NCBI RefSeq assembly: GCF_003790525.1
Contig: NZ_CP033635.1
Length of the DNA stretch: 64,000 nucleotides
Source: Escherichia coli
Lineage (GTDB): Bacteria; Pseudomonadota; Gammaproteobacteria; Enterobacterales; Enterobacteriaceae
Direction: 5' to 3' (one strand)
The first letter of the stretch is position 1; each line of letters begins with the position of its first letter. The position numbers were made by a program, and so were the translations under genes. Below are positions 1-7,923 of this stretch, piece after piece. The notes below the pieces were generated by a model, which was given only the letters and a program-made list of their open reading frames with translations, did not search any database and had not been told where the DNA came from.

Positions 1-1215
1 GACCACGACCCGAACTACATCATGCAGATGGCCGGACGTGCGGCAGCGCTTGGCGTTGAACGTTTCATTATCGACGACGGCTGGTTTAAGGGACGCAATG
101 ATGACCATGCGGCTCTGGGCGACTGGTATCTGGATGAACAGAAGTATCCGGACGGACTGATGCCGGTGATTAACCATGTGAAATCACTCGGCATGGAGTT
201 CGGTATCTGGGTGGAACCGGAAATGATTAACCCGGACTCTGACCTCTTTCGCCGCCATCCTGACTGGGTACTGTCAATGCCGGGGTACACACAACCAACC
301 GGGAGACATCAGTATGTTCTCAACCTGAACATTCCTGAGGCCTTTGCTTACATTTATGAACGCTGTTTATGGCTGCTGGGCGAACACCCAGTTGACTATG
401 TGAAATGGGACATGAACCGCGAGCTGGTCCAGGCCGGGCATGAAGGTCGGGCGGCGGCGGACGCGCAGACCCGTCAGTTTTACCGGCTGCTGGATCTCCT
501 GCGCGAACGTTTTCCCCGTGTTGAGTTTGAGTCCTGCGCTTCCGGCGGTGGACGTATCGACTTTGAGGTTCTGACCCGCACGCACCGCTTCTGGGCTTCT
601 GACAACAATGACGCCCTGGAGCGCTGCACCATACAGCGTGGCATGAGTTACTTTTTCCCGCCGGAGGTTATGGGGGCACACATCGGTCATCATCGCTGCC
701 ATGCCACCTTCCGGCAGCACAGCATTGCCTTTCGCGGTCTGACGGCCCTGTTCGGTCATATGGGACTGGAGCTGGATCCGGTAACGGCCGGAGAAGAGGA
801 ATCCGCCGGTTACCGCCGCTATGCCTCGCTCTACAAAGAATGGCGGCAGCTTATCCACACGGGCACCCTATGGCGGGTGGATATGCCGGATGCGGCGACA
901 CAGGTGCAGGGGGTGGTCAGCCCGGATCAGTCGCAGGCGCTCTTCCTGGTGAGCCAGCTTGCCATGCCGGATCACACCCTGCCGGGTGCTCTACGTTTTC
1001 CGGGGCTGGCACCACAGGCCCGTTACCGGCTTCGTGTTGTTGACCATCCGGATATTCAGCTGGTCGGTGAAGGCGGGCATACCATGCGCAGGCTGCCCGG
1101 CTGGATGAACCAGACCTCCGACATCAGTGGGGAATGGCTGGCGCAGGCCGGTATTCAGCTTCCCGTACTGGATCCGGAAAGCGCCATGCTGATTGCCCTT
1201 GAACGTTTGGCATAA
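1..1215 (+). CDS. rafA: alpha-galactosidase (GH36), C-terminal part; 5' end lies upstream of window
   Basis: Open frame runs from window edge to stop at 1215; GH36 melibiase-like sequence (DDGWF...); followed by LacY-like permease and GH32 invertase as in raf operon. Confidence 0.85.
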   Translation, partial: DHDPNYIMQMAGRAAALGVERFIIDDGWFKGRNDDHAALGDWYLDEQKYPDGLMPVINHVKSLGMEFGIWVEPEMINPDSDLFRRHPDWVLSMPGYTQPTGRHQYVLNLNIPEAFAYIYERCLWLLGEHPVDYVKWDMNRELVQAGHEGRAAADAQTRQFYRLLDLLRERFPRVEFESCASGGGRIDFEVLTRTHRFWASDNNDALERCTIQRGMSYFFPPEVMGAHIGHHRCHATFRQHSIAFRGLTALFGHMGLELDPVTAGEEESAGYRRYASLYKEWRQLIHTGTLWRVDMPDAATQVQGVVSPDQSQALFLVSQLAMPDHTLPGALRFPGLAPQARYRLRVVDHPDIQLVGEGGHTMRRLPGWMNQTSDISGEWLAQAGIQLPVLDPESAMLIALERLA

Positions 1216-1269
1216 AAGGACCGGAGCCGGTCACGGCTCCCTGCACTCAGTCCCGTGAGGATAACAATA

Positions 1270-2547
1270 ATGAATACTGTCAGTACTCATAAAAACCCCG
1301 ATTTCTGGATATTTGGTCTGTTCTTTTTTCTCTACTTTTTCATCATGGCAACCTGTTTCCCGTTTCTGCCCGTCTGGCTGTCAGACATTGTGGGGCTGAG
1401 TAAAACGGATACCGGGATTGTTTTTTCATGCCTCTCCCTGTTTGCCATCAGCTTCCAGCCGCTGCTGGGGGTCATCTCAGACCGTCTTGGCCTGAAAAAA
1501 CACCTGATGTGGATCATCAGCCTGCTGCTGGTCCTGTTTGCACCGTTCTTTCTGTACGTTTTTGCGCCGCTGCTGCGGTTCAACATCTGGGCCGGAGCAC
1601 TGAGCGGCGGGATTTTTATCGGCTTCGTTTTTTCTGCGGGAGCCGGTGCCATCGAAGCCTATATTGAACGTGTCAGCCGCAGCAGCGGATTTGAATACGG
1701 TAAGGCCCGGATGTTCGGCTGTCTGGGCTGGGCGCTGTGTGCCACCACGGCAGGGCTGCTTTTCAACGTGGATCCGTCCCTGGTATTCTGGATGGGGTCC
1801 GGCTGCGCATTGCTGCTGGTCCTTCTGGTGGCGCTGGCGCGTCCCGGAACCAGTCAGACAGCGATGGTCATGAATGCGCTGGGTGCCAACTCGCCCGTGA
1901 TTTCCGCCGGAATGGTGTTCAGTCTGTTTCGTATGCGTCAGATGTGGATGTTCGTGCTTTACATGATTGGGGTGGCCTGCGTCTATGACGTGTTTGACCA
2001 GCAGTTTGCCACGTTCTTCCGTGCATTTTTTGACACGCCGCAGGCGGGGATCCGGGCATTTGGTTTTGCCACCACGGCTGGCGAGATTTGCAATGCCATC
2101 ATCATGTTCTGCTCCCCCTGGATAATCAACCGCATTGGTGCCAAAAACACACTGCTTGTCGCGGGTCTGATTATGACCATCCGCATCACAGGGTCGGCCT
2201 TTGCCACCACGGCTACTGAAGTGGTGATCCTGAAAATGCTGCATGCCCTTGAAGTCCCATTCCTGCTGGTTGGTGCGTTCAAGTATATCACCGGCGTGTT
2301 TGATACCCGGCTGTCGGCCACCATTTATCTGATTGGCTTTCAGTTCTCCAAACAACTGGCGGCGATATTCCTCTCAACCTTTGCAGGTCACCTGTATGAC
2401 CGCATGGGGTTCCAGAACACCTATCTGGTTCTGGGCGGTATTGTCCTTGCGGTCACCGTGTTATCGGCTTTCACCCTGAGCAGTACCCGTAAAACGGCTG
2501 CCCCGTCAGCAGAAACCGCTACAGCACAGACGGAGGTTCGCTTATGA
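1270..2547 (+). CDS. rafB: raffinose permease, LacY-family MFS oligosaccharide:H+ symporter
   Basis: 425-aa product starting MNTVSTHKNPDFWIFGLFFFLYFF, strongly LacY-like throughout; ATG at 1270 chosen over upstream ORF-track start. Confidence 0.85.
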   Translation: MNTVSTHKNPDFWIFGLFFFLYFFIMATCFPFLPVWLSDIVGLSKTDTGIVFSCLSLFAISFQPLLGVISDRLGLKKHLMWIISLLLVLFAPFFLYVFAPLLRFNIWAGALSGGIFIGFVFSAGAGAIEAYIERVSRSSGFEYGKARMFGCLGWALCATTAGLLFNVDPSLVFWMGSGCALLLVLLVALARPGTSQTAMVMNALGANSPVISAGMVFSLFRMRQMWMFVLYMIGVACVYDVFDQQFATFFRAFFDTPQAGIRAFGFATTAGEICNAIIMFCSPWIINRIGAKNTLLVAGLIMTIRITGSAFATTATEVVILKMLHALEVPFLLVGAFKYITGVFDTRLSATIYLIGFQFSKQLAAIFLSTFAGHLYDRMGFQNTYLVLGGIVLAVTVLSAFTLSSTRKTAAPSAETATAQTEVRL

Positions 2548-3974
2548 AACAGCGTCTTGTCTCTGCACAGGTTGCACTTGATACACTCCGCGCCCGTCGT
2601 GGTGATACCTGGTACCCGGTTTTTCATCTGGCTCCACCTGCCGGATGGATGAATGATCCGAACGGGCTTATTTATTTCAGCGGTCGCTATCACGCATTCT
2701 TTCAGCACCATCCGGCAAGTGAACATCAGGGGCCGATGCACTGGGGACATGCCACCAGTCCGGACATGCTGCACTGGCAGCATGAGCCGGTTGCGCTGGC
2801 ACCCGGTGATGAATATGACCGGGATGGCTGTTTTTCCGGCAGCGCAGTGGACGACAACGGCGTGCTGTCGCTTATCTACACCGGTCATCTCTGTCTGGAG
2901 GATCGGGGGGATGACAGCATCATCCGCGAAGTCCAGTGTCTGGCAACCAGCCGTGACGGCATTCACTTTGAGAAACAGGGCTGCGTGCTGACGCCACCGG
3001 AAGGCATCATGCATTTCCGTGACCCGAAGGTCTGGCGGGAAGGGGGATACTGGTGGATGGTTATCGGCGCGCGGGATACCTCTGACACCGGTCAGGTGCT
3101 GCTGTATCGCGGCACATCCCTGCGGGACTGGCGCCAGGAACGGGTTCTAGCGCAGTCGGCAGCCGGAGAAAGCTATATGTGGGAATGTCCGGACTTTTTC
3201 CGCTGTGGCGACCATCACTGGCTGATGTTCTCCCCGCAGGGGATGACGCCCGGCGGATACCGGTTCCGCAACCGCTTTCAGAGCGGAGTTTTACCGGGTC
3301 ACTGGCAGCCGGGGGCCGCCTTTGCCCTGAGCGGGGCATTTGAAGAACTGGATCACGGTCATGATTTTTATGCCCCGCAGTCCCTGGTCGCGGAGGACGG
3401 ACGGCGCATCATCATGGCCTGGATGAATATGTGGGACTCCCCGATGCCTACAAAGCGTGAGGCCTGGGCCGGATGTCTGACCCTGCCGAGGGAACTTTTT
3501 GAACGCCATGGTCGTCTGTGTCAGCGTCCGGTTCGCGAAGCCGAATCCCTTCGCGGGACGTGCCAGCCGTTACACCCTGTAAGGCTCAGTGGCACGCAGT
3601 TGCTGGCTGAGGACGCACAGGCCGTGGAACTGGTGCTGACGTGGCATACCCTCGACAGTCAGGCAGAGCATTACGGCATCCACCTGGGAGACGGGCTCCG
3701 GCTGTATGTGGATAACCAGGCAGGACGGCTGGTGCTTTGGCGTCACTACCCGGATGAGGGGCTGGACGGTTACCGCAGTATCGCGCTGCCTGGCGCAGAA
3801 TATCTGACGCTACGGGTTTTCCTGGACCGTTCATCGGTGGAAGTGTTCGTTAACGATGGCGATGCCACCCTGTCCAGCCGTATTTACCCGCAGCCCGGAA
3901 CCCGCCGGTTGTCGCTATATGCAGCTCACGGCGAGGCTGTGCTGACGGACGGCTCACTGTGGACGCTGGCCTGA
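2544..3974 (+). CDS. rafD: raffinose invertase / sucrose hydrolase (GH32)
   Basis: 476 aa with GH32 N-terminal catalytic motif WMNDPNG; 4-bp overlap with rafB stop (operon). Confidence 0.8.
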   Translation: MKQRLVSAQVALDTLRARRGDTWYPVFHLAPPAGWMNDPNGLIYFSGRYHAFFQHHPASEHQGPMHWGHATSPDMLHWQHEPVALAPGDEYDRDGCFSGSAVDDNGVLSLIYTGHLCLEDRGDDSIIREVQCLATSRDGIHFEKQGCVLTPPEGIMHFRDPKVWREGGYWWMVIGARDTSDTGQVLLYRGTSLRDWRQERVLAQSAAGESYMWECPDFFRCGDHHWLMFSPQGMTPGGYRFRNRFQSGVLPGHWQPGAAFALSGAFEELDHGHDFYAPQSLVAEDGRRIIMAWMNMWDSPMPTKREAWAGCLTLPRELFERHGRLCQRPVREAESLRGTCQPLHPVRLSGTQLLAEDAQAVELVLTWHTLDSQAEHYGIHLGDGLRLYVDNQAGRLVLWRHYPDEGLDGYRSIALPGAEYLTLRVFLDRSSVEVFVNDGDATLSSRIYPQPGTRRLSLYAAHGEAVLTDGSLWTLA

Positions 3975-7687: not shown

Positions 7688-7692
7688 ACACT

Positions 7693-7718
7693 AACGCTCC
7701 CGGTGTACCGGGAGCGTT
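7693..7718 (+). terminator. perfect inverted repeat just after scrY stop (possible terminator stem, no T-run)
   Basis: AACGCTCCCGGT/ACCGGGAGCGTT palindrome 6 bp after scrY stop. Confidence 0.4.
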
Positions 7719-7923
7719 GCCGGTCATTGTCCCGTAAATGAAAGCGTTGTTCATCAATAGGAATTTAAACCCCAAAAAGATTAAAAAAACACCTGAAAAA
7801 GGGCGCTTTCTCAGCATCGTCACACATGCCATAACTTCGACGTCATCAATTAAATGGACTTCATTGATTGATACCGGGTATCGTGACGGGAGCCTGTTTA
7901 GGATTCTGTGTAAATGCCTTTTC

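Follow-up and report, generated by a model that had tools for sequence, protein, structure and literature searches.

A mosaic raf operon variant with a probably scr-derived porin in an Escherichia coli genomic island

The 64,000-nucleotide stretch of Escherichia coli DNA considered here (the window; RefSeq assembly GCF_003790525.1, contig NZ_CP033635.1) opens with a block of sugar utilization genes: rafA, rafB and rafD, a gene for a Crr-like EIIA protein, a fructokinase gene (K) and a gene for a porin of the ScrY type. This block is probably a mosaic form of the classical raf operon known from plasmids, equipped with an scr-derived porin; the remaining scr genes appear to have been lost by an old rearrangement, and the block would work as one raffinose pathway. 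An initial annotation had described it as raf and scr operons fused together, the latter truncated by an insertion sequence (IS). The gene content and order given there are supported by Pfam and NCBIfam scans and by the RefSeq (PGAP) annotation of the identical stretch, on which the gene identities below are based. A DUF2913 gene, absent from that earlier description, is also present.

The proposed history and function are as follows. The R-A-B-D core, the EIIA(Glc) paralogue and the fructokinase would belong to the raf-cluster lineage. The gene of the outer-membrane channel would have been taken long ago from an ScrR-regulated scrKYABR operon, and now sits in the position of RafY. Raffinose would cross the outer membrane through this ScrY-type glycoporin, be imported by RafB and be split by RafA into galactose and sucrose. 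RafD would then split sucrose into glucose and fructose, the fructokinase would phosphorylate the fructose, and RafR would control the rafA promoter via twin operators. The scrA, scrB and scrR genes that followed the porin gene would have been lost in an old rearrangement whose scar is an IS91-family end, located at a GTTC some 65 bp beyond the stop codon of the porin gene; the IS1414 and IS3-family insertions into that debris would be later. Judging from the functions of the protein families, raffinose utilization is the most likely role of the pathway. The features of the block are:

1-1215, plus strand: rafA, the 3' 404 codons of 708 (GH36 Melibiase, E 1.6e-95, plus GH36C); the window begins inside the gene
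1270-2547, plus strand: rafB, LacY-family raffinose permease (LacY_symp, E 2.5e-205; TIGR00882, 679 bits)
2544-3974, plus strand: rafD, GH32 invertase (sucrose hydrolase) with GH32N and GH32C domains
3984-4004, plus strand: GC-rich hairpin, possible attenuator or terminator (9-bp stem in a terminator scan; -15.0 kcal/mol by folding)
4038-4553, plus strand: raf-linked EIIA(Glc) paralogue (Crr-like), 171 amino acids (NF006962, 235.7 bits for a cutoff of 212)
4559-4762 and 4824-5135, plus strand: DUF2913 gene split in two open reading frames (ORFs), both named DUF2913 by PGAP, the first with a weak Pfam match (E 2.8e-4)
5165-6091, plus strand: fructokinase (K), PfkB family, ScrK/CscK type, raf-linked lineage (NF006957, 477 bits for a cutoff of 450)
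6140-6153, no strand assigned: putative orphan ScrR-type operator, the perfect palindrome CTAAATCGATTTAG, 37 nt upstream of the porin ATG
6191-7687, plus strand: ScrY-type sucrose/oligosaccharide porin, LamB family with an N-terminal coiled-coil extension (LamB and Sugarporin_N)
7693-7719, plus strand: hairpin with an 11-bp perfect stem, homologous to the hairpin of the pCC32 scrY-scrA spacer (-23.4 kcal/mol by folding)

The porin module and the breakpoint behind it

The porin aligns over its whole barrel with the sucrose porin ScrY of known structure (PDB 1A0S; E 7.9e-222) and is 76-79% identical to ScrY of pUR400, pCC32 and pJJ1887. With RafY it shares just the coiled-coil, about 70 N-terminal amino acids at 32-33% identity. 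A search for closer relatives or for an intermediate arrangement found no porin between 79% and 99% identity. One apparent 86% match (P0112) was rejected as an intermediate: it is a truncated ScrY of a pCC32-like scr operon, the DNA of which is 89% identical to that of pCC32 (L006) and only 75% identical to the window.

The spacer upstream of the porin gene also points to scr. The canonical scrK-scrY spacers carry two ScrR operators, CTAAATCGGTTTAG and CTAAACCGGTTTAG, and a related site precedes scrK. The palindrome at 6140-6153 matches the canonical scr operators at 13 of 14 positions and aligns with O1, the first of the two; RafR operators, which read CCGAAACGWTTCGG, are unlike it. The ScrR-type pattern occurs once in the 64 kb, where 0.03 occurrences would be expected by chance. 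With the pattern CTAAAYCGRTTTAG, a single perfect candidate site is found before the porin gene and none before K, as compared to the two sites in the K-Y spacer and the one before scrK in canonical operons. The kinase-porin spacer of the window (6092-6190) measures 99 bp, versus 167-170 bp in scr operons, a shortfall close to the distance between O1 and O2. The single operator may be the product of a deletion between these two sites. As there is no ScrR in the cluster, the porin is probably expressed constitutively or by read-through from upstream.

On the 3' side, scrA begins 60-67 bp after scrY in each of the five nearest ScrY relatives whose context was read, four of which lie in complete K-Y-A-B-R operons. 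The identity to ScrY, the ScrR-type operator, the hairpin shared with pCC32 and this position of scrA in the relatives all indicate, at the sequence level, that the porin module (gene, promoter-operator region and 3' hairpin) is of scr-regulon descent.

The missing genes were looked for with the ScrA, ScrB and ScrR proteins of two canonical scrKYABR operons, those of pJJ1887-5 (L005) and pCC32 (L006), as tblastn queries against the 64 kb. Neither scrA nor scrR was found in the window (the best chance matches have E>2), nor was scrB, the only ScrB-like match in the 64 kb being RafD at 37-40% identity. The absence of the three genes, reported in the initial annotation, is thereby upheld, and they do not lie elsewhere in the part of the island that the window contains. 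Nor did tblastn detect any coding remnant of ScrA in the 140 bp between the hairpin and IS1414. The region downstream of the porin contains the following elements:

7749-7882, minus strand: GTTC target (7749-7752) and IS91-family end remnant of about 130 bp (7753-7882), the end downstream of tnpA
7890-8717, minus strand: IS1414 (IS256-family) fragment, transposase without its N-terminus (NF033543, 307 bits, profile positions 106-336 of 338; Transposase_mut; PGAP)
8771-9510 and 11772-12260, plus strand: fragments of an IS3-family element in IS debris that spans 8718-12268 (PGAP; IS3 and HTH_Tnp_1)
10333-11691, plus strand: reverse transcriptase (RT)/maturase ORF of a group II intron that interrupts the IS3-family element (RVT_1 and GIIM domains)

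Sequence of the scr type extends 62-65 bp past the porin stop, up to GTTC. From there on (7753-7882) the sequence is about 74-76% identical, over 120-135 bp, to IS91-family termini present in more than 1000 E. coli records. GTTC, or GAAC on the other strand, is the target of IS91, and the window holds terminal sequence of this family abutting a GTTC/CTTG (GAAC/CAAG) target. Its junction, GTTC followed by ATCAATAGGAATTTAAACCCCAAAAAGATTAAAAAAACACC (also GTTC followed by ATCRATAGGAATTTAAA), is the same as that of the complete IS91 copies in L015 and L016. The two complete copies start with GTTC followed by ATCGATAGGAATTTAAA, at the end downstream of the transposase gene, and one of them interrupts adeP. 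No transposase remnant or further sequence of IS91 was found in the window by tblastn with the IS91 transposase.

Homology to IS1414/IS256 starts at 7890 (query positions 200/201-1028), 203 bp after the porin stop, in keeping with the fragment placed about 190 bp after scrY by the initial annotation. This element begins inside or beyond the IS91 remnant, and is itself cut by the IS3-family element at about 8717. IS1414 was rejected as the truncating element, its homology starting beyond the IS91-type junction at 7753. The idea that an IS truncated the scr operon holds insofar as an IS junction lies where scrA would begin; the element at the junction is an IS91-family end and not IS1414.

Two plasmids have the same scrA-less end of the block and no IS1414 there. 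The Salmonella Saintpaul IncFII plasmid NZ_CP022492.1 (L002) is 99.3% identical to the block from 334 bp upstream of rafR up to window position 7757. The E. coli IncK2/Z plasmid p135-1 (NZ_CP080261.1; L003) is identical up to 7849 and then diverges. The loss of scrA, scrB and scrR must therefore predate, or be independent of, the IS1414 event. The divergence point of p135-1 was also considered as an empty IS1414 site, and rejected since it lies within the IS91-like remnant. Past position 7757, an IS200/IS605-type subterminal hairpin follows in the Salmonella plasmid, together with about 75 codons from the start of a TnpB-like gene (MKRAYKYRFYPTPDQ...; L002 19758-20075). Its sequence marks a second IS event at this junction, independent of the first.

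On these sequences, the real breakpoint is the IS91-type junction and not IS1414, and the truncation appears to be old. Because a simple IS91 insertion deletes no neighbouring DNA, a later IS-associated deletion has to be assumed, and we infer that the scr genes were removed by it.

Genes of the raf lineage

For the E. coli plasmid raf operon of the pRSD2 type, rafRABD-rafY, PMC4809568 and PMC12987596 cite Aslanidis et al. (1989) and Ulmke et al. (1997). RafB of the window is 88% identical in amino acid sequence to its classical counterpart, and RafD 83%, versus 37-40% for RafD and ScrB. The full-length rafA found in the identical block of E. coli strain 165 (L001 14089-16215) encodes a protein 87% identical to classical plasmid RafA. 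Just 5' of the window, identical genomes have an intact rafR gene (L001 12985-13995); the RafR of strain 165 is 79% identical to classical RafR and 28% to ScrR. Twin RafR-type operators, the inverted pair CGAATCGTTTCGG and CCGAAACGATTCGG, precede rafA in that strain. With amino acid identities of 79-88% and a DNA identity of about 80% to the classical operon, the block represents a distinct raf lineage rather than a copy of the plasmid operon.

The classical operon (L007), R-A-B-D-RafY, has the same R-A-B-D order, the same LacI-type repressor and GH36, LacY-family and GH32 proteins, twin RafR-type operators before rafA and a distal porin gene. The order A-B-D, with RafB and RafD directly downstream of RafA, is thus a feature of the raf operon family present in the window, whereas the distal RafY-type porin (Porin_8, PF16966) was not found in the block, where the porin has LamB and Sugarporin_N domains. 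The window differs further by the EIIA, split DUF2913 and fructokinase genes placed between rafD and the porin gene, and by the family of the porin, LamB/ScrY versus Porin_8 for RafY, with only the N-terminal coiled-coil in common. Moreover, the classical operon is plasmid-borne, while the block of the window is chromosomal, in an island next to ileX. The hairpin after rafD may attenuate read-through into the distal genes.

A second raf cluster, on an E. coli plasmid from a pigeon isolate (NZ_CP141865.1; L008), reads R-A-B-D-K-RafY. Its kinase is the closest relative of that of the window; unlike the window, the cluster has no EIIA, no DUF2913 and no ScrR-type operator, and its porin is of the RafY type. 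As L007 and L008 show, it is normal for a raf cluster to have a kinase and a porin gene behind rafD. The scrKYABR operons of pUR400, Klebsiella and Enterobacter (L005, L006, L017 and L018) share with the window a ScrY-type porin, a ScrR-type operator sequence before its gene (a putative operator in the window), the 3' hairpin and an upstream fructokinase of the same family; the window departs from them in lacking scrA, scrB and scrR, and in having one operator versus two in the K-Y spacer and none before K. This comparison with raf plasmids and scr operons, close to the one proposed in the initial annotation (raf plasmids and scr transposons), bears out its assignment of the core to raf, but leaves only the porin module as clearly scr-like.

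The fructokinase could have come from either type of operon. It is 73% identical in amino acids to the kinase encoded between rafD and rafY on L008, versus 65-69% to ScrK of the two reference operons. No closer relatives of it were seen elsewhere, many ScrKs lying at 69-72% identity. The two raf-linked genes share about 32 nt upstream of the ATG, a sequence that scrK does not have. In neighbour-joining trees with 15 ScrK-type sequences, K and the L008 kinase form a clade in 200 of 200 bootstraps, a bipartition that gives no direction of descent. In a sliding-window comparison K is closer to the raf-linked kinase along almost the whole gene. No sharp switch in identity is seen, and a recombination junction inside the kinase gene was rejected on that ground. 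Since K groups with the raf-linked kinase and shares its upstream sequence, it is best viewed as a raf-cluster kinase and not as an scr relic.

The EIIA gene is also tied to raf. The protein is about 60% identical to E. coli Crr (the reference sequence used matches database entry P0172 at 99.4%), whereas the Crr proteins of Vibrio and E. coli are 86% identical to each other. It keeps the PTS_EIIA_1 fold, both active-site histidines (His75 and His90 of E. coli Crr) and the motifs ETNHAF and ELFVHFGI. Alignment to Crr and to solved EIIA(Glc) structures indicates that the N-terminal amphipathic segment is kept as well (N-terminus MGLLGRIKQLIS). Outside its own cluster of 98-99% identity, its nearest relatives are 58-66% identical. 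Two of them are accessory EIIA paralogues, 60-63% identical, encoded 64-66 bp after rafD-like GH32 genes in Citrobacter braakii and Klebsiella michiganensis, at 8001-8513 in L010 and 8001-8513 in L013, raf clusters with a RafY-type porin; the rafD-EIIA spacing of the window is 63 bp. The raf-linked EIIAs form one clade with long branches (200 of 200 bootstraps), apart from the housekeeping Crr of Escherichia, Klebsiella, Salmonella, Dickeya, Morganella, Vibrio and Aeromonas. The candidate of an orthologue of housekeeping crr was accordingly rejected, on both its identity and its clade. The paralogue clade is fast-evolving and occurs in raf clusters of three lineages, E. coli/Salmonella, C. braakii and K. 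michiganensis; no EIIA gene is part of the classical plasmid operon.

The Citrobacter and Klebsiella clusters (L010/L011 and L013/L014) resemble the window lineage in having an EIIA gene of this clade about 65 bp downstream of a GH32 rafD-like gene, and their rafR, rafA and rafB products are 67-78% identical to those of the window lineage. They differ in having a RafY-type porin and in their gene orders, R-A-B-RafY-D-EIIA, or D-EIIA then R-A-B-RafY; neither a fructokinase nor DUF2913 was detected in the clusters examined of these two species. Because the same EIIA clade adjoins rafD in these other raf clusters, the window protein is, by its phylogeny and position, a conserved partner of rafD and not a leftover of a sucrose phosphotransferase system (PTS).

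The chromosomal EIIA(Glc) reportedly inhibits the raffinose permease by inducer exclusion (Titgemeyer et al., 1994), and this regulation of RafB suggests a role of the paralogue in inducer exclusion or catabolite control. We offer, quite tentatively, that raf clusters carry their own, phosphorylatable EIIA(Glc) as a private regulator, which might act as a decoy relieving RafB exclusion, or as a phosphoryl sink or adenylate-cyclase activator. If so, a mobile raf module would escape host glucose control by bringing its own piece of the PTS regulatory network, on a sugar island that also has an orphan ScrR operator leaving the porin unrepressed. Of all elements in the block, this paralogue alone could open new biology. 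No specific description of it, of this chromosomal raf variant or of raffinose genes in the ileX island was found in the literature.

As to the DUF2913 gene between EIIA and K, three-frame translation indicates that a single frameshift near 4750 would rejoin its two ORFs, and the gene is probably frameshifted. The Salmonella plasmid copy L002, 98.8% identical, has this split too, which must therefore be older than the dispersal of the module. The other raf clusters examined yielded no DUF2913 homologue.

Alternative histories and the reading of the block

The proposal that the raf cluster acquired only its porin from scr has to be weighed against several observations. Its raffinose pathway is deduced, for this variant, from the functions of the families. 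The porin exchange could have consisted in a ScrY-type porin replacing one of the RafY type, or the reverse. No recognisable scrA start is seen in the 65 bp that separate the hairpin from the IS91 junction, so that an ancestral scrA at this exact spot follows from synteny only. K is nearly equidistant (69-73%) from many ScrKs, and its 3' flank is weakly similar to scrK 3' flanks; K may or may not have come with the porin, and its descent could run in either direction. The DUF2913 gene is broken, which means that not every gene of the block is maintained. Finally, with all copies near-identical, recent spread could account for their persistence in place of selection.

The kinase bears on a model that is less probable than the one favoured here: the whole K-porin pair would come from the scr regulon, and the raf-linked kinase of L008 would descend from the window's block. 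K does belong to the ScrK family, with 65-72% identity to many ScrKs, and the similarity of its 3' flank to those of scrK, weak as it is, runs up to operator O1. The K-porin spacer, about 60-70 nt shorter than in scr operons, or roughly the O1-O2 distance, is compatible with an internal spacer deletion. On the other hand, no ScrR operator is found upstream of K, unlike in scr operons, and the region upstream of K is shared with the raf-linked kinase gene and not with scrK; the kinase tree, being undirected, supplies no line of descent from this block to L008.

It is unlikely that the block was never joined to scrA, scrB and scrR, the ScrY-family porin being native to this raf lineage. The operator would then be read by another repressor (RafR, Cra or a LacI-family protein of the host), and IS91 would have inserted past the natural end of the operon. 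The strong hairpin right after the porin stop could indeed be such a natural 3' end; no trace of scrA is left, other raf clusters also end in a porin gene, and a porin without close (>79%) relatives in scr operons may represent an old, separate lineage. However, a homologous hairpin lies between scrY and scrA in pCC32, where it does not mark the end of an operon. The near-perfect match of the operator to ScrR operators, and its unlikeness to those of RafR, also speak against this model, as does the fact that the IS91 junction falls at just the distance where scrA begins in all five of the nearest ScrY relatives.

The history put forward in the initial annotation, in which raf was joined to a complete scr operon, IS1414 cut off scrA, scrB and scrR, and scrK, scrY and EIIA are functionless relics, is very improbable. 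Enteric ScrA uses EIIA(Glc), which makes an EIIA beside scr genes look plausible, and scrA, scrB and scrR are indeed absent from the window, with an IS1414 fragment downstream of a ScrY-like porin preceded by an ScrR-type operator; but the element abutting the scr-type flank contradicts the IS identity, no scrA codons precede IS1414, the same end occurs in two contexts free of IS1414, the EIIA clade accompanies rafD in other genera with no scr genes nearby, K groups with the raf-linked kinase in all 200 bootstraps, and both K and the porin have intact ORFs in every copy sampled.

The mosaic raf operon with a borrowed porin thus remains the preferred reading. Fusion of raf and scr is right to the extent that raf-type genes and an scr-type porin share one block, and wrong for K and EIIA, which belong to the raf cluster. 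The further suggestion that a sucrose PTS would be non-functional here is beside the point: no sucrose PTS gene is present, and K and the porin fit a raffinose pathway. All components are of well-known families, and the arrangement is found in hundreds of public genomes.

The practical value of these results lies in correct annotation. The RefSeq labels of the block are generic ('MFS transporter', 'aminoimidazole riboside kinase', 'carbohydrate porin', 'crr'), and pipelines call ScrY-like porins 'rafY / sucrose porin precursor'. Two recent association studies (PMC12987596, PMC12815263) connect E. coli of chickens, birds fed raffinose-rich soybean meal, with raf genes and a porin of this kind; the associated gene bears the label 'rafY, sucrose porin precursor'. 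Reading the block as a raffinose module that is complete and has borrowed its ScrY-type channel, and not as a broken sucrose operon, helps to interpret these associations and to predict raffinose and sucrose phenotypes from genomes. It also provides a small, clear case of modular operon evolution, in which one outer-membrane channel function is filled by two unrelated porin families, and in which the orphan operator and the IS91 scar record the history of the block.

Setting and spread of the block

The full mobile module runs rafR-rafA-rafB-rafD-EIIA-DUF2913(split)-fructokinase-porin, and the window contains its distal two-thirds. It is about 10.1 kb long, has IS debris at both ends and is near-identical wherever present, its raf, kinase and porin ORFs being intact in all copies sampled. 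Positions 1-9600 of the window are 100% identical to many complete E. coli chromosomes, and at least 80% of this segment is carried by 183 of 5426 complete E. coli genomes; the block is also found on a few E. coli and Salmonella plasmids. Such near-identity fits a functional unit, but would also fit recent spread. The block is an ordinary, widely shared raffinose-utilization unit of E. coli.

On p135-1, a chicken plasmid, rafR (L003 6288-6992) keeps residues 102-336 only; IS2 lies upstream and the DNA-binding domain is gone. Constitutive raf expression is therefore predicted for that plasmid.

In strain 165, the block resides in a genomic island flanked by nfeF (yqjH) and the ileX tRNA gene. 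The tRNA-adjacent end of the island lies within the window, and core genes (mug, rpoD, dnaG) follow from about 32.4 kb onward:

32241-32316, minus strand: ileX tRNA gene (anticodon CAT)

The integrase gene of the island (L001 3449-4765) is at the end far from the tRNA gene, which is unusual for tRNA-associated islands. The other island content of the window comprises IS fragments, the group II intron, a type I restriction-modification system, an Ag43 gene and CP4-type genes, none of them related to sucrose. The RT/maturase ORF of the intron is open in the window; its counterpart in strain 165, ltrA, is annotated with an internal stop.

The segment 12269-22901 sets the window apart from strain 165, whose island matches otherwise. 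In the window it encodes the type I restriction-modification proteins HsdM (12462-14921), HsdS (14928-16238) and HsdR (17426-20443), with a DUF4268 gene (16248-17411) inserted between HsdS and HsdR. At the same place, strain 165 has lactate-utilization genes and a different hsd cassette. Between 22959 and 32316, the window holds a GTPase gene, an Ag43-type autotransporter gene (24168-27089), antirestriction and RadC-like genes and, before ileX, a CbtA/CbeA-type toxin-antitoxin set.

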